Shown in pieces: positions 6,317-58,822 of a stretch of DNA of 64,000 nt (positions within the stretch are counted from its first letter, which is position 1; the number at the start of each line of letters is the position of its first letter). The notes under the pieces were generated by a model. That model ran no database searches and had not been told where the DNA came from. It saw nothing but the letters and a program-made list of their open reading frames with translations. This stretch comes from Dictyostelium discoideum (taxonomy: Eukaryota), in assembly GCA_000004695.1 (NCBI GenBank), contig CM000151.3:3904001-3968000 (forward strand). The letters run 5' to 3'. A program made the translations under genes and the position numbers.

Positions 6317-6930
6317 AAAAAGAAAAAAGAAAAAAGTTAATTTAAAAATATCTATTTGTGATTAATTATTTTTTTATTTATTTTATTTACTAACTTGATA
6401 ACATTTTTGTTATAAGCTTTTTAAAAGTTCTTTTTTAGTTTTTTTTTTTTTTTTTTTTTTACTTGGGATTCTTTATTTTATTTAATTTTTTAAATTTGAA
6501 TTACCTGTTTTATTTTTTTTATTTTTTTTATTTTTTTTTTATAAAAATATAAAAATTATTTTTTGATAAAGAGCCATTTTTAAAAAATCAATTATATTTT
6601 TTGGTAAAAGATTTTTGTAATGATTTCTTTTATTTGACCATTATAAGATTTTTTTTTTTTTTTTTTTTTTTTGTTGTGAATTTAATTTTTTTTTATTTTT
6701 TTTTTATTTATATATAGATAATTTAAATGATGTCTTCAAACTGATCAATATTTTGATTTGTCAGATAATTTTTAATGATCACTTTTGATTTTATTATGAT
6801 AATTAATTGTTGAAATGCACATTTATTTTTTTTTATTTGCTAGCAAAAATTTTAAAATAAAAATAATAGAGTTTAAAATATTAAATTAAGGAGGATTATA
6901 TTTTTAAATAATTTCTGTTATAATTTTTAC

Positions 6931-6961
<31 letters not shown>

Positions 6962-7401
6962 TAGATTTTTTTGATCAAATTATATTATATATTAATATAT
7001 ATTTATTTTATTATATGGATCAAAATAAATTAATTTAGATTACCACTAATTTTATTCAAAATCTCTAAATCTATGTGGGTTTTATATTCATTTAAATAAA
7101 AGTAAACACACAAAAATAAAAATAAAAATATGGGGGAAATTTAAAATAATAATTATATTTTATTTATTTTTTTATTTTATAATATATTTATTATATTTAT
7201 TTAAATTTGTCTTTTTTTACTTTTTTTAAAAAAAAATTGGATTTGAGGGTGGTTTTATATAAATAAAAAAGATCATTATTATTATTACTTTTTTTTATTT
7301 ATTTATCTATAAATTTTATTTTATTTTATTTTATTTTAATTTAATTTGTTTTTGACCCAAACCCCCAATTATTTTTTGTAGTTTTGTGACTGATGTTGGT
7401 G

Positions 7402-10055
7402 TTATGTTGATGGTGTTAGTGGTTTAACTGAAAATAAATTTGGAATTCCACCAATAAATCCGCTCTTTTCTGATGGTTGTTGGTTTGTTGAGGTTGTTGT
7501 CGATCTAGTGGAAATTCCACTAAGGAATCCACTTGGTTTTGGTGTTTCATTAGCATTTGTTGTAGATATTGCTGGTGATGTTGTAGAAGGTTTTTTAGTT
7601 ACTGTAGGTGGTAAAGTTGGTTTTATATTTGAAAATTCACCGATGTATCCACTTTTTTCAGTGGTTTGCGTAATACCTCCAATCAATCCACCAAATGGAG
7701 CATTTCCAGTTGTTGAGGTTGATTGGGTATTTGAGGTTGGTATAAAACCTATTAAACCTGGCAATAGATTGGATGGCGGAGGAGTAGAATGCGTTTGAGT
7801 TGGGGTTGGTGTTTGAGTTTGAGTTTGAGTTGGTGTTTGAGTTTGAGTTGGTGTTGGTGTTTGAGTTTGAGTTGGAGTTTGTGTTTGAGTTTGTATTGGT
7901 TTTGGAGTTTGAGTTTGTGTTGGAGTTTGTGTTTGGGTTTGAGTTGGTGTTGGTGTTTTAGTTTGAGTTGGTTTTGGAGTTTGGGTTTGTGTTGGAGTTT
8001 GTGTTTGAGTTTGAGTTGGTGTTGATGTTTGAGTTTGAGTTGGTGTTTGTGTTTGAGTTTGTGTTTGTGTTTGTGTTTGTGTTGGTGTTTGTGTTGGTGT
8101 TTGTGTTTGAGTTTGTGTTTGTGTTGGTTTTGGAGTTTGTGTTTGTGTTGGAGTTTGTGTTTGTGTTGAATTTTGTGTTTGTGTTTGTGTTTGTGTTTGT
8201 GTTTGTGTTTGTGTTGGTGTTGGTGTTGGTGTGTGGGTTTGTGTTGGTGTTGGAGTTGGAGTTTGTGTTGGAGTTGGAGTTTGTGTTGGAGTCGGAGTTT
8301 GGGTTGGTGTTGGTGTTGGAGTTTGAGTTGTTGGTGTTTGTGTTGGTGTTTGCGTTGGAGTTTGTGTTGGTGTTGGTGTTTGAGTTGATGTTTGTGTTGG
8401 TGTCGAGGTTGGTGTATTGATTCCACCTAAAAAGCCTCCAAAGAAACCAGATGCTTTTGTTGGTGTTGGTGTTGGTGTTGTTGATATTGATGTTGGTGTT
8501 GTTGATATTGATGTTGGTGTTGAGGATGGTGCATTGATACCACCAAAAATGCCTCATAAGAAACCAGATGCTTTTGTTGGTGTTGGTGTTGGTGTTTGAG
8601 TTTGAGTTGGTGTTGGTGTTAGTGTTGGTGTTATTGTTGGGGTTTGAGTTGGGGTTGGTGTTAGTGTTGGTGTTGGTGTTAGGGTTTGAGTTTGTGTTGG
8701 TGTTGGTGCTATTGTTATTGTTGGGGTTTGAGTTTGTCTTTGAGTTTGTGTAGGTGTTGGTGTTTGAGTTGGTGTTGGTGTTGGTGTTTGTGTTTGGGTT
8801 GGTGTTGGTGTATTGTAACCTCCAAAATAGCCTCATAAGAAACCAGATGCTTTAGTTGGAGTGGGTGTTGGTGTTTGTGATTGGGTGGCTGTAGTTGTAG
8901 TTGTAGGTGTTGGTGTTGGTGTAGGTGTATTGTAGCCACCGAAATAGCCTCCTAAAAAACCAGATTCTTTAGTTGGAGTGGGTGTTGGTGTTTGTGATTG
9001 AGTGGGTGTAGTTGTAGGTGTTGGTGTAGGTAGTGGTTGGGTTGGTGAAGGTGTTTGAATAGGTTGTGTTGTACCAGTTGTTGAACCACCAAATAAACCA
9101 CCCAAGAAACTAGATACTGGTTTTTGAGTTGGATTTGGGGTTGGAGTTGAGGTTGGGGTTGGAGTTGATGAAAGTGTTTGTGCGGGTGTTGGTGTTGATC
9201 CACCACCACCTATAAATCCACCTAAAAAACCACTTGATGGTTTCGATGTTGGAGTTGGAGTTAAAGATGGTGTTACACCACCATTTGTACTTCCACCACT
9301 TATGAAACCACCAATGAAACCAGTACCACCACCATTTGGTTGGGTAGGTACAGGGGTTTGAGTTTTAAAACCACCACTACCTCCACCTAATAAACCACCT
9401 AACAAACCTGAAGATCCGCCACCTAATAAAGCACCACCAATTAAATGTGGGATATTATCAACTCCAATTAAACCAGAAGTTGATGTAACACGTGGACATA
9501 ATAATTTTGCTTCAATGATTGCACCAAATAAACCACTAAATAAATTTGATAGACCAAATATTGATTTTTGTACTCTTTCATCCATATTATCTTGATCCAT
9601 AATAATTATACCTTTATTAACTGGAATCCCATCTTTATTAAACAATTCAGGATAACAAAAGTTTCTATATTTTGAACATAATGAAGTAATCTTTACATCA
9701 ATATTATCAACTAAATAGTTTAAATCATAATTTTGATCTGTTAAATAATTTTTAATTCTTGATATAAAATATTTTTGTTTTTCATCTTCATTTAATTTAT
9801 TAAATAATTTTAAAGATACATCATTTTTATCATTCTAAAAATGGAAAATTAAAAATAAAAAAAAATAAAAATTAGAAAAATAATATTAAAAAAAATCTAT
9901 AAGATCCTTATAATAATTACTCTTAAATCAACTATAAATTTATTTCTGTTTATTTCATCAACTTCACTTTCTTCTTGATAGATTTCATTTGCATTAGAAT
10001 TTCCCATAAAAAATATAAAAATAAAAAGTATTACAATTATTTTTAATATTTTCAT
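7402..10055 (-). CDS. Secreted Thr/Pro-rich mucin-like repeat protein (paralogue C of a 3-gene cluster) with two in-frame TGA codons; possible pseudogene or strain polymorphism; 2 exons, about 855 codons
   Basis: Exon 1 is 9921..10055: signal peptide [22 protein letters not shown]...VDLR, donor GTAATT. The intron is 9835..9920. Exon 2 is 7402..9834 in a single frame (coordinate mod 3 = 1). ORFs 8833..9645 and 7402..7764 are parts of that frame, and the 1-kb stretch between them has no Met and so is absent from the track. The frame encodes NDKNDV...CSKYRNFC...[12 protein letters not shown], then about 7 xSGF[LF]GG[YFL][FI]GG motifs separated by (PT)n spacers, then 630 nt of (GTTTGA/GTTGGT)n hexamer coding TQTQTPTPT.... 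TGA codons at 8833-8835 and 8554-8556 both lie in the identical context GGTTTCTTATGAGGC (SGFL*G), where intact units have TTAGGAGGC. Confidence 0.6.
7790..8420. repeat. Imperfect hexanucleotide array (GTTTGA/GTTGGT/GTTTGT)n, about 630 bp, coding Thr/Gln/Pro repeats of the mucin-like gene; all three reverse frames are open
   Basis: Visible periodicity gtttgagtttgagttggtgtt.... This explains track ORFs 7958..8836 (TNTN...), 7752..8426 (HKHQ...) and the plus-strand ORFs 7789..8025, 7968..8420 and 8173..8388 as repeat artefacts. Confidence 0.9.
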
Positions 10056-10879
10056 TTTTTTTATTTTTTTTTTTTATTTTTGAAAACAAAAGATAGAATA
10101 TTAAAAAATATAATTAAAATTTAAAAAAAATTTATAATTAATAATTAAGTTTGAAATAAAATATAAAAAAAAATATGAAAAAAAAAAAATATCAGGATTT
10201 ATATATAAAAAACAATTATATATTTTAAATATATAAATTATTAATTCAATGTTTTTTTTAGTTTAATATTGTTCAATATTCAAACAAATAATTTCATTGA
10301 GCCCATTTATTATTATTAGTATGCTATATACTATGGTGATAACCATTAATGAAAAATAAAAATAAAAATAAAAATAAAAATAAAAATAAAAATAAAAATG
10401 TATAAAAACAGTTAACACAGTAAGAAACTGGGGGTAAACAATTTTCAACAATATAAATAGAAATTATTTGTATGTTAATCATTGGTCAATAACCCCCAAG
10501 TTGAACATTTATTTGTAAAATGGATTTTTCGATTTTTTTTAAAATTTTCATTAAAATCTACTTCTATATGGGTATTATATGGGTATATGGATACAATAAA
10601 AATACAAGTAATTATAATTTCAATAAAAAAAAGAAAAAAAAAAAAAAAAAAAAAAAATCTTCAGATTTTAACCATATAAACATTATGAAATTATTAAATA
10701 AAATGAAAAAATTAGATGTAAAAAAAAATTATAAATTACCTTATTTGTTTATTTTTTTAGTAGAAAAAGATAATAAAAAAAAAAAAAAAATAAAAAAAAA
10801 AAATTAAAAAAAAAAAAAATTAAAATAAGGTATATACTAAAGGAAATTGTTAATTTTAAAAATTTTTATTTATTTAATT

Positions 10880-12187
10880 TTATTTTTTTGAAAGTGCTGG
10901 TGAAACTTTTGAAAGATTATTTTCAATTTCAATATTATCAATTTGGTTATTATTTTCAACCTTTTTATCTTGTTGATGTTGTTGATTATACTTTTGAGTG
11001 AATAAATCAACGATATTTAAGAATTGGTCAAAGTAACTTGCATAATCTGATAAAGTACTCTCAGATTTTGGTGAATTTGTTTGAACAACTGGTGGTGATT
11101 GAGTATTTGGTTGTTGTGGTTGTGGTGGTTGTGGTGGTGGTAATGTTGGAGCAGGAGTTGGTTTTTTAGTTTGAGGTGGTTGTTCAGTTTGAGGTGGTTT
11201 TGTTTTAACAACTGGAATAGATGGTTGTGGTTGTGTTTGAACTGGAATATCTGGAATCTCATTTAAAATTGGTACAAGTTCATCAAATTCCTCTTGATTT
11301 TCTTCATTTTGTTGTCTTTCCAATTGTTGTTGAAGTGCCAATGCAGCCAAACGTGCTTTTTCCTCCATTTCACGTCTATGTTGAGATTCCCTATAATCTC
11401 TCTCCATTTGAAGTTGTGCTTCAAGTTGAGCTTGTCTATCTTGTGAAGTTGGATTTTGATTTTGATTTTGATTTTGATTTTGATTTTGATTTTGATTTGA
11501 AATTTGATTTTGATTTGAAATTTGATTTTGATTTGGAATTGGTTGATTTTGTTGATACTGTTGGAAATTTTGAGCGATTGGTGCATTTTGTCTATTGTCT
11601 GGTTCATTTTGAGTATTTATTGAAGCGGCTATTGGTGGTCCATTTGTACCACCTATTAAACCACCTAATAAATTTAAACTAATTAATAATCTTTCCAATT
11701 TCTTATTGGTTTCAGCAGAGAATTTAAAATCATTTGATTTAATATTATCTTGAATTAATTTTACAATTTCATCAGATTTTGATTGTAATATTACTTTTGC
11801 TGTTGATAATAAATTTTCAGGTAATTGATTATTATAAATTGAACATTTCTCTGGTTTATAACTACATGCATATGTTATTACACTAACTAATTGATTTTGA
11901 TTTAAATTATATTTATTTGCATATTCTTGAATTTGTCCAATAACTTTTTCAATTACAAATGATTTAGCATCATTTTCATTATTTTTAATTTCCTAAATAA
12001 AAATGAATAATAAACAAAAAATAAAAAAATAAAAAATAAAAATAAAAAATTTGTTTAGAAAAAAAAAAATAAAAAAAATTATAAAAAAATAAAAAAAATT
12101 AAAAAAAGTAGTTATAGTTACTTCAGATAAAACCAATGAATATAATAAAGATAATATTAAAATAAATAATATTTTCTTAAACACCAT
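10880..12187 (-). CDS. Secreted Gln/Asn/Pro-rich protein (paralogue A of cluster); 2 exons, 392 aa
   Basis: Exon 1 is 12122..12187: MVFKKILFILILSLLYSLVLSE, a signal peptide of 22 codons. The intron is 11995..12121 (GTAACT...TTATTTAG). Exon 2 is 10880..11992, phase 0: EIKNNENDAKS...VITYACSYKPEKCSIY...LERLLISLNLLGGLIGGTNGPP...(QNQ)n coded by (GATTTT)n...coiled EAQLQMERDYRESQHRREMEEKARLAAL...Pro-rich tail. The CS-x5-C and LLGGLxGG motifs are shared with gene C. Confidence 0.6.
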
Positions 12188-45603: not shown

Positions 45604-47568
45604 ATGAATATTATTTTTTTAAAAGTCCCCTCAATTTTTAAAAAATTAAATGTGGGAAATATTAAAATTTTAAATGTAAATCAAAATAGCCCATCTATAA
45701 TAGTAAATAGTAATAATACAAAGAGTATTAAAAATCATAATTATTCATCTTTTACAAATAATAACAATAATAATAATAAAAATCAAGTAAATTTAGTTCA
45801 AAATAAATCAATATTATCATCATCATCATCATATAAAGGGAATAATAATAATAATAATAAATTATCATACACAACATCATCAAATAATAATAATAATAAT
45901 AAAATTGAAGAAATTGTTAAATCAACAACAGTTTCACCATTTACACCATTAAATATTTTACATCCAAAATTAGTTGGTGAAAAACTTTATAGTAATGATA
46001 ATGAAGCAAATAATAATCAAAAAGAGTTTAAAGCAGAGATATCAACATTACCAAATGGGATTAGAGTAGTTTCAAAACAAACTCATGAAGGTGTTTGTGC
46101 AATTGGGTTATATATAAATGCAGGTACAAAATATGAGTCACCCCAAGATAGAGGTGTATTTAATTTATTAGAGAAAATGACATTTAAAGAAACAAAAAAC
46201 AATTCCACCTCAGAGATTATTAAAGAGTTGGAAGAGATCTCAATGAATGCAATGGCATCCTCAAGTAGGGAGATGATTAATGTTTCATTGGAAGTGTTAA
46301 GAAAAGATTTAGAATTCGTATTGAGTATCCTATCAGACCAAATTAAATCACCAACCTATTCAGAGGAGGAGCTTAGGGAGCAAATCGAAGTTTGTATTAG
46401 AAACTATGAAATGATTACAAATTCATCATCTGATCAATTAATGACAGAGATTTTAATGGGTGTTGCATTTGGTGATGCCGGTTTAGGCAATTTAGTGATT
46501 GCAACACCTGAACAATACCAAAACATCACTCGTGAGAAACTATTTGATGCATTAAGAAAATATTATGTTGGTAAGAATATAGTTATCAGTGTCACTGGTG
46601 CTGAACATTCACAAGTAATCGAATTGGTTGATAAATATTTCGGTGATATTCCATTCACTCAAAAAGATACCCCATCTGAAGATTCAATAGATAGTACTAT
46701 CACCTATAAAGGTGGTACAGATGCTTGTGTCGCTGGTTTAATTCATAAAAATCATTTAAAATCTCAATTACAATTTTTAATTGAAAAACAACAAAAATTA
46801 AAACAACAACAACAACAACAACAACCACAACCACAAAATTCAAATATAGATGATAATGATAATGAAGAAGAATTATTAAATTTAGAAATTGAACAAACTA
46901 AAATTTCAATTGAACAATTAGAATTACAACAAGTTAAAGAATCATCTTGGATTATTGCATTCCCACATAGTGGTTTATCAACAGTTGCAGAGAATAAAGA
47001 TATTATTAATGGATTGGTATTACAGTCATTGTTGGGTGGTGGCAGTTCTTATTCTACTGGTGGTCCAGGTAAGGGTATGCAAAGTAGATTGAATTTGAAT
47101 GTAGTTTATTCTTCACATAGGGTAAAGAATTGTCATGCATTTTTATTCGTTTTTAATAAAGTTAGTTTATTTGGAATTAGTTTAACAACTCAATCAGGTT
47201 TTCTTCAAGACGGTATCGAATTGGTACTTCAAGAATTGTTAATGTTAAGATCATCAATGACTCAACAAGAATTGGAACGTGCTAAACGTTCTCAAAAATC
47301 ACAAATCCTTCAAAATTTAGAAATGAGAAGTGTTCAATGTGATGATATGGCTAGACATATCCTATCTTTTGGCTCCTATAAATCACCTGAACAAATTTGT
47401 AAACTCATTGATTCCGTCACTTTGGATGATATTAAAAAATTAATTTCAAAACTAGCTCAATCAAATCCTTCCGTAGTTTCAATAGTTGCAAATGAAAATG
47501 AACCAATCTTAACTGCTGAACAATATAATCAAATTGTTAAACAAAATTCTTCAACTTTATTTAAATAA
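45604..47568 (+). CDS. mppA: Mitochondrial processing peptidase alpha subunit (M16 family, non-catalytic); single exon, 654 aa
   Basis: Continuous ORF with an N-terminal Asn/Ser-rich presequence region. M16 domains: LPNGIRVVSKQTHEGVCAIGLYINAGTKYESPQDRGVFNLLEKMTFKETKN...GLGNLVIATPEQYQNITREKLFDALRKYY...; a poly-Gln insert; and a Gly-rich loop LLGGGSSYSTGGPGKGMQSRL characteristic of alpha-MPP. The 654-aa length matches the described Dictyostelium alpha-MPP. Confidence 0.9.
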   Translation: MNIIFLKVPSIFKKLNVGNIKILNVNQNSPSIIVNSNNTKSIKNHNYSSFTNNNNNNNKNQVNLVQNKSILSSSSSYKGNNNNNNKLSYTTSSNNNNNNKIEEIVKSTTVSPFTPLNILHPKLVGEKLYSNDNEANNNQKEFKAEISTLPNGIRVVSKQTHEGVCAIGLYINAGTKYESPQDRGVFNLLEKMTFKETKNNSTSEIIKELEEISMNAMASSSREMINVSLEVLRKDLEFVLSILSDQIKSPTYSEEELREQIEVCIRNYEMITNSSSDQLMTEILMGVAFGDAGLGNLVIATPEQYQNITREKLFDALRKYYVGKNIVISVTGAEHSQVIELVDKYFGDIPFTQKDTPSEDSIDSTITYKGGTDACVAGLIHKNHLKSQLQFLIEKQQKLKQQQQQQQPQPQNSNIDDNDNEEELLNLEIEQTKISIEQLELQQVKESSWIIAFPHSGLSTVAENKDIINGLVLQSLLGGGSSYSTGGPGKGMQSRLNLNVVYSSHRVKNCHAFLFVFNKVSLFGISLTTQSGFLQDGIELVLQELLMLRSSMTQQELERAKRSQKSQILQNLEMRSVQCDDMARHILSFGSYKSPEQICKLIDSVTLDDIKKLISKLAQSNPSVVSIVANENEPILTAEQYNQIVKQNSSTLFK

Positions 47569-50677: not shown

Positions 50678-52243
50678 ATGGAAAATAATAATAATAATTT
50701 TATTGAAGAAGAAGAAGAATTAAGTGAACCAAAAGAAAAATGTGGAGTTTTTGCAATTTATGCACCAGAATTAGATGTTAGTAGAATTGCATTTTTTGGA
50801 TTAGTAGCATTACAACATAGAGGACAAGAATCATGTGGTATAGCAACCTATGATGAATTTCAAAGTGTACATGTAGAGACAGGTATGGGATTGGTGAATC
50901 AAGTTTTCAATGAAACTAATTTGAAGCCATTGAAGGGTAAGATGGCAATTGGACATACACGTTATTCAACAGCAGGAAAGAGTACATTGGTCAATGCACA
51001 ACCAGTGATTGTGCAAACATTGCATGGTCAAATTGGTATTGTACAAAATGGTAACCTCACCACTGCAAAGAGTTTAAGAAAAGAGTTGATGCAAAAGGGT
51101 GTTGGTTTCTTTATAGATAGTGATGTCGAAGTAATTACACAATTGTTATCCAACAATCCAGAGGGTTGCGATCCACATAAACCAAATTGGGAGAATAGAA
51201 TCGCCCATTTCATGAGCAAAGCAGAGGCTGCCTACGCATTGTGTTTGATGACACCCAACGGTATCTACGGTGTGCGTGACTCGTTGGGAATGCGTCCATT
51301 ATGCTTGGGCTCGTTGGAGGTGCCATGCAAGGACGACCCAACCAAGACCATCACTCGTTACGTGTTGACCTCAGAGTCTTGTGCCATCGGCACCATTGGC
51401 GCAAAGTTTATACGTGACGTTCGTCCAGGTGAAATCGTACACATCAACGAGAATGGTATCACCTCCTTCATTGGCCGTTCGCCATCGGATAATCCAGCAT
51501 TATGTGTTTTCGAATATGTTTATTTCTCACGTCCAGATTCATCAATGGAGGGCCAACTAATCCATATCGTCCGTCAACGTATGGGCGAGACATTGGCTCG
51601 TGAGTCACCACCACCACAAACCTGCTCCAACAATGACACCATTGTTATAGGTGTCCCCGACTCCTCATTACCCGCTGCCATTGGGTATGCCAAACAATCG
51701 GGTATCCCATTCACAGAGGGTTTAACAAAGAATCGTTACATTCATCGTACTTTTATTCAACCATCCGATCATTTACGTCAACAAGGTATAAAATTGAAAT
51801 TCAATCCACTCACAGAGAATATTCAAGGTAAGAAAGTGATACTCGTAGATGACAGTATCGTTAGAGCAAACACTATCAAAGCTTTAATTAAATTGATTAG
51901 AGGAGCTGGTGCCACTGAAATTCATGTCAGAATCTCCTCTCCACCAGTTTTACATCCATGTCACATGGGTATCGATATGGCAACATACGACCAACTCATT
52001 GGTCACAATAGAACAGTCGAAGAAATTCGTGAATATATAGGCGCTGAAAGTTTACAATATCTAACCCTAGAAGGTTTAATGAAATCTGTCAATATTGGTA
52101 TTAAACCACAAGCTGAAACTAATTCAACTCCATGTTTTTCAACTTCATCCCCAACTACAACCAAAATTAAAATTAATGAAAATAATCAAAAACATTGTGT
52201 TGCTTGTTTCACTGGTGATTATCCTTGCAGTTTAGATTTTTAA
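50678..52243 (+). CDS. purF: Amidophosphoribosyltransferase (glutamine PRPP amidotransferase, [4Fe-4S] type); single exon, 521 aa
   Basis: Propeptide [21 protein letters not shown], then the catalytic [10 protein letters not shown]... (N-terminal nucleophile Cys after processing); [16 protein letters not shown]; the PRTase motif [14 protein letters not shown]; and C-terminal Fe-S Cys ligands CHMGIDM...[15 protein letters not shown]. Confidence 0.95.
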
Positions 52244-56244: not shown

Positions 56245-58822
56245 ATGTTTCGTTTATTTTCATCAGGTGTTGATGATTTAGTTTTAGTTTCAAATCCAAG
56301 TAATGGTGAGGTAACAAGTCAAATTGGTGCTAGATTTGATAGAGAATTAATTTATACAAATATTGGTGAAGTATTAATTGCTGTTAACCCTTATAAAGCA
56401 TTACCAATTACTGGTCCTGAATTTATTAAAGTAGGTTTTTTTTTTTATTATTTATTAAATTAATTTTTTTTTTTTTTATTTTTTTTTTATTTAAAAATTA
56501 TGTTTGGAAAATATTAATATTTATATATATATTTATATAATTTTTTATTTTAGTTGTATCAAAATGCATCAGGATCAGATGCTTCACCACATATTTATGC
56601 ATTAGCAGAAAGAGCATATAGAAGAATGGTTGATGAAAATGAATCACAATGTGTTATTATTTCAGGTGAATCAGGTGCTGGTAAAACAGTCTCTGCAAAA
56701 TTAATTTTACAATATGTTACATCAGTATCACCAAATAATAGTAGCGGTGGTGGCATTGGTGGTAGCGGTGGTGGAAATGGCGGAATTCCACAATATGATG
56801 GTGGTAGTGATGACCGTCCTTCACCACCAATGGGTAGAGGTATGGGTATGCCAGGTATGGTTGGTAGAGGTGGTTTGCCAACTAGAGGGGGTGGTCCACC
56901 ATCAAGAGGTGGAGGTCCACCACCAACTAGAGGTAGAGGTGGTCCACCACCACCAATTCCTCAAAATAGAGGAGCACCACCACCAGTTTCAAATGGAGGA
57001 GCACCACCACCAGTTGCAAGAGGTCCAGTTGCACCACCACCAACCAGAGGAGCACCACCAACAAGAGGGGGAGGTCCAGCAAATAGAGGTGGTAGAGGTG
57101 GTGGTCCACCACCAGTTTCAACATCAAGAGGTGGAGGTGGTTATGGTGGTAGTAGTAAAACAGTTGATGTTGAACATATTAAAAAGGTAATTTTAGATTC
57201 AAATCCATTAATGGAAGCAATTGGTAATGCTAAAACAGTTAGAAATGATAATTCATCACGTTTTGGTAAATATTTAGAGATTCAATTCGATGATAATAAT
57301 GCACCAGTTGGTGGATTAATTTCAACCTTTCTTTTAGAGAAAACAAGAGTAACATTCCAACAAAAGAATGAAAGAAATTTCCATATTTTCTATCAAATGT
57401 TGGGTGGATTAGATCAAACCACTAAATCTGAATGGGGATTAACTCAAGCCACCGATTTCTATTATCTTGCCCAAAGTAAATGTACAACCGTTGAGGATGT
57501 TGATGATGGTAAAGATTTTCATGAAGTTAAAGCAGCAATGGAGACCGTTGGAATTTCAAGAGATGAACAAACTGAAATCTTTAGAATTCTTGCTGCCATT
57601 TTACATGTTGGTAATATTCGTTTCCAAGGTGAAGCACCAGCTTCGGTCATTGATGAAACTCCATTACAATGGGCTGCTTCATTGTTGGGTTGTGATCCAA
57701 CATTCCTTTGTCAATCATTGAATCATAGACAAATTCAAAGTGGTAGTGCAAGACACACTCAATATCAAGTACCACAAAATCCTGATCAATCCGCTGGTCT
57801 TAGAGATGCATTGGCAAAAACCCTATATGAACGTATTTTCGATTTCATTGTAGCTCGTGTTAACAAGGCAATGTCTTTCAGTGGAAATTGCAAGGTCATT
57901 GGTGTTTTGGATATCTATGGTTTCGAAGTATTTGAACGTAACTCTTTTGAACAATTTTGTATCAATTATGTCAATGAACGTCTTCAACAGATCTTTATTG
58001 ATCTTACAGTTCGTGGTGAACAACGTGAGTATCATGAAGAGGGTATGAAATGGAAGGATATCAGTTTCTTTGATAATAAAATTGTAGTAGATCTTATCGA
58101 TGGAAATAAACCACCTGGTATCATGAGAGTTTTAGATGACGTTTGTAAAACGGTTCATGCTGTCGATAGTGCCGCTGCAGATATTAAATTCATGGAGAAA
58201 TTAATTCACTCCATTCAAAGTCATCCCCATTTAGTCATTTCAAATACTGGTTCCTCTGCTGATGAATTCACAATCAAACATTATGCCGGTGAAGTATCTT
58301 ATTCAATAGAAGAGTTTTGTTTCAAAAATAATGATAACCTTTACGCTTCAATCGTTGGTTGTCTTCAAAATTCAACCTATCAATTCATCGTATCTTTGTT
58401 CCCTGAAAATATTCAAGATAATAAACAAGCTCCTACCACTTCAAGTTTCAAAATTCGTCAATCTTCAAGTTATTTAGTAACTCGTTTATCCGCTTGTACT
58501 CCACATTACATTAGATGTATTAAACCAAATGATAAAAAACAACCAATGAATTTCGTCTCGTCAAGAGTTGAACATCAAGTTAAATATTTAGGTATTTTAG
58601 AAAATATTAAAGTTAAAAGATCTGGTTACGCTTATAGACAATTAAAAGATATCTTTTTAAATAGATTTGGTAAAATTATGGATGTTCAACCAAGAAATGT
58701 TCAAGAATTTGTTGAATATATAACTAGAACTCATAAAGATATTAATGCTGATGAATTTGAAGAAGGGTAAATTTATTAATTATAATTAATTTTATTTAAT
58801 TTTATTTTTAAAACTATTACTA

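Follow-up and report, generated by a model that had tools for sequence, protein, structure and literature searches.

Differences between AX4 stocks of Dictyostelium discoideum and the deposited reference genome have been described by Saxer et al. (2012; PMC3466296), who measured an AX4 mutation rate of 2.9e-11 per site per generation and listed 1916 candidate differences from the reference, each present in more than one line, that were ascribed to reference errors or to differences between stocks. The mucin-like gene analysed here lies on the minus strand of a 64-kb stretch of AX4 chromosome 2 (the window), and its second exon contains two in-frame TGA codons. It resembles these cases in that the deviating bases are private to the deposited AX4 sequence and recur in no other dataset, and in that the gene that is hit is repeat-rich and hard to sequence. 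It differs from them in that the deviations are denser, with about 1.5 per kb arranged in clusters compared with about 1 per 10 kb genome-wide, and in that the same substitution occurs twice among them, each time in the same context. A second group of related cases is formed by tandem-repeat assembly errors, which were reportedly treated by Torresen and colleagues in 2019. As in such errors, a repetitive coding region is hit and the protein is mis-annotated or lost. However, there is neither collapse nor expansion at this locus: the gene measures 2654 nt in an independent assembly too, and the fault lies in substitutions of single bases, which disposes of the repeat collapse artefact considered in an earlier note on this DNA. 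In our reading, to which we assign a probability of about 0.9, the gene is normal and intact, consists of two exons and encodes an 855-aa secreted mucin-like product, and both TGAs are single-base errors of the AX4 chromosome 2 reference.

The gene starts with an ATG at 10055. Exon 1 (9921..10055, minus strand) comprises 45 codons in phase 0 and encodes a hydrophobic N-terminus that resembles a signal peptide. It is followed by an AT-rich intron of 86 nt (9835..9920, minus strand) with GTAATT...TTTTAG (GT..AG) boundaries, a length that equals the gene span minus the CDS length both in the window and in the recent assembly GCA_054883475.1 (locus L004), and by exon 2 (7402..9834, minus strand), whose 811 codons include the terminal TAA at 7404-7402. 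The boundaries of exon 1 are supported by GCA_054883475.1, in which the same exon structure yields an annotated product of 855 aa, and the D. purpureum orthologue (P0002) aligns over the exon 1/exon 2 junction. The gene model of the earlier note, i.e., a signal-peptide exon, an intron and a long repeat exon, is thus upheld by an independent annotation. Exon 2 encodes an N-terminal two-Cys domain, eleven motifs of the (S)GF(L/I)GG type, a long Thr/Pro/Gln repeat and a non-repetitive C-terminal domain. In its frame 0 there are only three stops, namely the TGAs at 8835-8833 and 8556-8554 and the terminal TAA, compared with 31 and 38 stops in the other sense frames and 41-68 in the antisense frames over the same exon. 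The claim of a single frame of 811 codons from 9834 to 7402 that is broken only by two TGAs therefore holds on the minus strand. The further statement that this frame is kept open for 2.4 kb is correct in part. At about 8420-7800, the exon runs through an (ACA/CAA/CCA)n tract that is almost without stops in all three sense frames and whose openness is therefore uninformative, whereas the parts that do inform about the coding frame are the N-terminal domain and the C-terminal domain at 7800-7405. Because this non-repetitive C-terminal domain is open in frame 0 only and retains GFIGG and GLIGG motifs, the frame 3' of the stops is clearly coding. A cryptic intron that would skip both TGAs was considered and rejected, as plausible AT-rich intron signals are absent and the two codons are plain Gly codons in the sister strain.

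The corrected product of 855 aa begins with the signal-like N-terminus and a two-Cys domain of about 130 aa. These are followed by about 11 motifs of the SGF(L/I)GG(Y/F)(F/I)GG type interspersed with Thr/Pro/Gln repeats, by a continuation of these repeats, and finally by the short non-repetitive C-terminal domain. Thr, Pro and Gln make up 26%, 14% and 10% of the whole protein, respectively, and 36%, 19% and 14% of its central 560 aa. Like the Pro/Thr/Ser-rich secreted proteins described as mucin-like, it combines a signal-like peptide at the N-terminus (hydrophobic, judged by eye) with an extended Thr/Pro-rich domain, here a long low-complexity domain of Thr, Pro and Gln that, at 36% Thr and 19% Pro, is likely O-glycosylated. 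It departs from these proteins in that Pfam recognises no domain in the gene product, which instead carries the SGF(L/I)GG(Y/F)(F/I)GG motifs and a lineage-restricted two-Cys domain that was found in group-4 dictyostelids only. Judged by its composition, the product is most likely a secreted, O-glycosylated protein of the matrix or the cell surface.

The gene is the last of three tandem minus-strand genes of like architecture (13692-13076, 12187-10880 and 10055-7402), among which N-terminal similarity is weak. The second upstream neighbour, gene A (DDB_G0274747; 13076..13692, minus strand), has the same architecture and encodes a product of 175 aa that matches its AX4 accession exactly; with the likewise exact matches of mppA and purF, it places the window on AX4 chromosome 2. 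The upstream neighbour, gene B (10880..12187, minus strand), is a weak paralogue of the mucin-like gene. It has an intron after a signal-peptide exon, its N-terminal two-Cys domain precedes LGGLIGG, and in L004 it is annotated as a 392-aa model. The lack of an AX4 protein for the mucin-like gene in the protein collection is no evidence of its annotation as a pseudogene, since this collection also lacks the annotated AX2-type product of 855 aa and the 392-aa product of gene B.

The first in-frame TGA (8833..8835, minus strand) and the second (8554..8556, minus strand) are 279 nt apart. Both are contained in the 15-mer GGTTTCTTATGAGGC, for which 0.08 occurrences are expected in 64 kb and exactly two are found; the identical 15-nt context reported previously is thus confirmed, and the identity in fact runs over 24 nt (AAAGCATCTGGTTTCTTATGAGGC). 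The adjoining repeat units carry TTAGGAGGC (8961-8947, unit 1) and TTTGGAGGC (8448-8434, unit 4). By their flanking sequences, units 1 (8961) and 2 (8844) form one group and units 3 (8565) and 4 (8448) another, and the TGA-bearing units 2 and 3 are not sisters. From the shared context the earlier note had concluded that the stop-bearing unit had probably been duplicated or gene-converted after the mutation. This proposal is not supported: the flanks do not pair units 2 and 3, and the 24-nt core common to the two units is already present in its GGA form in an AX2-type assembly and in a diverged isolate, so that no duplication or conversion after the mutation is needed. As for signs of decay, there are no further stops and no frameshifts, the C-terminal motifs are retained and the length is identical to that of the intact allele. 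A metagenome scan for the 24-nt core gave no match to either the G or the T version.

The state of the two codons outside AX4 was read from two recent NCBI assemblies, GCA_054883475.1 (L004) and GCA_054859355.1 (L005), in which the locus was anchored on DDB_G0274747. The L004 copy, annotated with 855 aa, has the same length of 2654 nt as that in the window, from which it differs by five substitutions (10003, 9447, 8835, 8556 and 8169) and no indels; both TGAs are replaced by GGA, leaving the frame intact. Identity of L005 to the window ranges here from 84 to 93%, depending on the segment (about 10-13% divergence). L005 also has GGA at both sites, and its orthologue is intact, with 876 aa, and shares the N- and C-terminal domains and the terminal stop of the gene in the window. 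Gly in both assemblies implies that glycine is ancestral at either site and that the frame is maintained in full length over substantial divergence. Each TGA is thus a single G-to-T change from a Gly codon, as had been proposed, and the Ts at 8835 and 8556 are probable base-call errors of the reference, since GGA stands there in two independent assemblies. The TGAs are present solely in the AX4 reference and absent from the probable AX2-214 assembly and the diverged isolate. The observation that the earlier note had named as speaking against its claim, another sequence with GGA at both positions, was made in GCA_054883475.1 and again in GCA_054859355.1, and the young pseudogene or strain-specific null allele that it favoured is not supported, given these codons and the fact that the differences look like sequence error. 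The other three window-private bases (all minus strand) are also probable reference errors: at 10003 the window encodes Gly18, whereas AX2, the diverged isolate and Illumina-based Logan contigs encode Val18; at 9447 it encodes His and at 8169 Ser, compared with Asn and Pro, respectively, elsewhere.

AX2 and AX3/AX4 share common descent from the wild isolate NC4. De novo assemblies based on Nanopore and Illumina reads have been produced for the AX2-214 lab strain and nine wild isolates (CR116C, OT3A, M4B, S6B, KGL29A, CF3B, GS8B, AR5b and PJ11), and every discoideum-clade wild isolate was described as diverged from AX4, AX2-214 being the only member of the set without this description (Holland et al., 2025; PMC12745789). 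The species labels of this set (three 'D. discoideum', two 'cf. discoideum', D. citrinum and D. dimigraforme) match the locus-tag family, and GCA_054883475.1, as the single near-identical assembly in it, is by elimination almost certainly AX2-214. The nature of these assemblies bears on the idea that they, and not the reference, are wrong, a systematic long-read consensus error having turned TGA into GGA. Systematic errors do occur in these Nanopore-based assemblies, in which long homopolymers are consistently shorter than in the window. However, the assemblies combine Nanopore with Illumina reads (PMC12745789), the same G is found in two assemblies with about 10% divergence between them, and the error would have had to restore twice the consensus Gly of the conserved SGFLGG motif. 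In addition, where independent data are available (a protein derived from mppA cDNA, and Logan contigs built from Illumina reads), these agree with the new assembly, and we consider an error of this kind very improbable.

The mppA gene, which encodes the mitochondrial processing peptidase alpha subunit (Q86A84), lies within the window (ORF 45604-47568) and matches its AX4 record exactly. The cDNA-derived protein BAE45920.1 is identical to the protein of the AX2-type locus L006 and differs from the AX4 reference protein solely in four of the first nine residues (MNNNILKVH vs. MNIIFLKVP). At 10003 and 9447, the Logan contigs agree with L004; they end at 8971, a 31-mer repeat boundary, an end that was reproduced by simulated k=31 unitigs. 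Of ten simulated-unitig products that would tell the TGA from the GGA haplotype, none was matched, and the haplotype-neutral control was likewise absent. An exact look-up of the window's own variant of the exon-1 ORF found no record. The exhaustive HMMER protein search returned two relatives, the Logan exon-1 ORF, with one amino-acid difference, and the D. purpureum orthologue, of 135 aa and cut by the end of its contig. No usable relatives came from word-indexed protein searches with the truncated product of 378 aa, the N-terminal domain or the neighbouring Q_salvage exon, in an index from which relevant dictyostelid or low-complexity proteins are evidently missing.

The two TGAs are part of a larger set of differences that are private to the window. 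In a first alignment of the window with L004 and L005 over 20.7 kb, in which a difference was taken as window-derived when L005 agreed with L004, 50 mismatches separate the window from L004, about 40 of them window-derived, 2 L004-derived and the remainder ambiguous. In a second region (42.2-57.6 kb of the window, about 15 kb), the window was compared with L006, using the diverged L007 and L008 as outgroups, which gave 13 window-derived, no L006-derived and 3 ambiguous differences. Over a total of about 35 kb, about 53 differences are thus private to the window and at most 2 to AX2, an asymmetry with a binomial p of about 1e-13 when counted per site and of about 4e-5 when each cluster is counted as one event. 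The clusters lie at 21212-21132 (15 differences in 80 bp), 13577-13568 (5 in 10 bp), 12952-12590 (about 20 in 360 bp) and 45611-45654 (8 in 44 bp), with kilobases free of any substitution between them. Locally, five wrong bases fall in the mucin-like gene and nine between 10003 and 5394. The spectrum of changes is mixed (tallied by hand), and NTG mutagenesis of AX3 was rejected as the source of the private differences, as G:C to A:T accounts for only 9 of 41 polarised changes. A rate of 2.9e-11 predicts about 0.1 real mutations for 35 kb and 1e5 generations, compared with the about 53 differences observed. Because the measured mutation rate is far too low, a lineage-specific origin of about 1.5 differences per kb is implausible, and the window-private differences are, on this comparison, overwhelmingly errors in the deposited, Sanger-era AX4 chromosome 2 sequence. 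It is the one-sided and clustered distribution of these differences, together with GGA in two independent assemblies, that marks the TGAs as probable reference errors.

The same figures bear on the alternative that the TGAs are a real null allele of the AX3/AX4 lineage, or of the sequenced clone, in which a G-to-T nonsense mutation arose in one unit after the split from AX2 and was passed to the other by short-tract gene conversion. The TGAs do stand in the deposited AX4 sequence, and the identical 24-nt core common to both units could have seeded a conversion; a tract of this length is, however, very short for gene conversion. Moreover, two rare events would be required within about 50 years of laboratory culture at 2.9e-11 mutations per site per generation (PMC3466296), a rate at which about 0.008 mutations are expected for the gene per 1e5 generations. 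The TGAs also sit amid about 53 further window-private differences, not all of which can be real, and NTG mutagenesis of AX3, with the G:C to A:T share given above, offers no explanation. We therefore regard such an allele as improbable, although less so than an error in the newer assemblies. If it existed, the AX4 product would be truncated at 378 aa, and a double-nonsense allele in AX4, the reference strain in widest use, of a gene that is intact in AX2 and wild relatives could underlie a hidden phenotypic difference between AX4 and AX2.

Under the preferred reading of the TGAs as reference errors, a true G would have been recorded as T at both sites, in a stretch where consensus quality is locally poor. 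That an identical miscall should recur at a distance of 279 nt is unusual. The simplest explanation may be that the same miscall arose twice because the shared 24-nt context provoked the same base-calling artefact in low-coverage reads. Counting against such a context-dependent artefact is unit 1 (8961-8947), which has the same TTAGGAGGC context and yet was read correctly.

In eukaryotic selenoprotein genes, an in-frame UGA is accompanied by a SECIS element in the 3'-UTR. With such genes the locus shares an in-frame TGA in an otherwise open frame, and one may ask whether both TGAs are real and functional, being passed by programmed readthrough or by insertion of selenocysteine to yield a full-length protein. 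The intact downstream frame, in which the motifs of the protein are still present, would fit this idea, but it is fully explained by the stops being errors. In contrast to selenoprotein genes, no SECIS or other relevant Rfam match is found at or near the gene (6400-10200, E<=10), the sole match being a chance snoRNA of 14 bits. Furthermore, both the sister strain and the diverged isolate have GGA (Gly) as the homologous codon, and not TGA or TGT/TGC, so that neither TGA is conserved in the two relatives examined, both of which conserve the frame. The earlier note had ranked readthrough and selenocysteine last among its readings and had seen no SECIS, a judgement with which these results agree; of all the alternatives we give functional TGAs the lowest probability, as next to negligible. 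At gathering thresholds there are no Rfam matches in the whole window, and no tRNA was found in it.

The TGAs are thus real in the deposited sequence, yet almost certainly an artefact of that sequence, and the stops hold no new biology. In the AX4 reference, the gene of a real 855-aa secreted protein would then resemble a pseudogene through two wrong bases. Dozens of further private differences lie in this part of the chromosome 2 reference, some of them in coding sequence, where they alter annotated proteins (e.g., the first nine residues of mppA). Pseudogenes, recoding events, strain variants and N-terminal targeting sequences called from the AX4 reference should hence be verified against the newer AX2-214 assembly. 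As to the wider surroundings, purF (DDB_G0274321; ORF 50678-52243) is an exact match to AX4, and the eukaryotic ORFs nearby encode CPSF73, TRAPPC9, an M16 peptidase, purF and a class-I-like myosin. The synteny of the mucin-like gene with a Q_salvage gene is preserved in D. purpureum.

The start of mppA, which encodes the alpha subunit of the mitochondrial processing peptidase (ORF at 45604-47568, plus strand), is marked by eight window-private substitutions within 44 bp (45611-45654), that is, by bases found in the window and absent from both the probable AX2-214 assembly and the diverged outgroups. These substitutions alter residues 3, 4, 5 and 9, so that the AX4 reference reads MNIIFLKVP; at the DNA or protein level, MNNNILKVH is present in GenBank BAE45920.1, in the probable AX2-214 assembly and in two diverged isolates. 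Judged from these sequences, the N-terminus of the reference mppA protein (Q86A84) is probably wrong. The outgroups in the window comparisons were the loci L005/L008 (GCA_054859355.1) and L007 (GCA_054859385.1), which share only ~84-95% identity with AX4 at the compared loci despite their D. discoideum label. Such identity is consistent with CR116C and OT3A, the diverged tropical isolates of Holland et al. 2025 (PMC12745789).

When the window is compared with the probable assembly of AX2-214 and with a diverged outgroup, further clusters of window-private substitutions occur at 21212-21132, at 13577-13568 within the DDB_G0274747 intron, at 12952-12590 in intergenic sequence and at 6543-5394, and they look like low-quality consensus stretches of the reference. 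In the 35.5-57.6 kb comparison of the probable AX2-214 loci (L004/L006) with the window, all indels lie at long A or T homopolymers (e.g., 40336, in a 44-nt A run, 55921, 53280 and 38973), and the Nanopore-based assembly is the shorter one in all but one. This shortening is probably a homopolymer artefact of long reads, and thus the newer assembly should not be preferred by default where indels are concerned.

In the mucin-like gene, the erroneous T at 8835 also creates an ATG at 8836-8834 (minus strand), which starts a spurious Asn/Thr-rich ORF of 292 aa (8836-7958, minus strand) in a different frame of the repeat that an ORF caller would list. The mucin-like gene is one of three secreted-protein genes arranged in tandem at 13692-7402 (minus strand), together with DDB_G0274747 and a Gln/Asn/Pro-rich gene of 392 aa. 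All three are built alike: besides a signal-peptide exon and a short intron, they have an N-terminal domain with two Cys and motifs of the GG(L/I)IGG type. The three appear to form a small lineage-restricted family, which is also syntenic in D. purpureum, adjoining a Q_salvage gene.

A class-I-like myosin motor domain is encoded at 56554-58770 (plus strand) and, compared with MyoE (PDB 1LKX), carries an insertion of ~140 residues between the P-loop region and the remaining head. The L006 annotation gives this gene a 1238-aa model. With its head insertion, it presumably resembles Dictyostelium MyoK.
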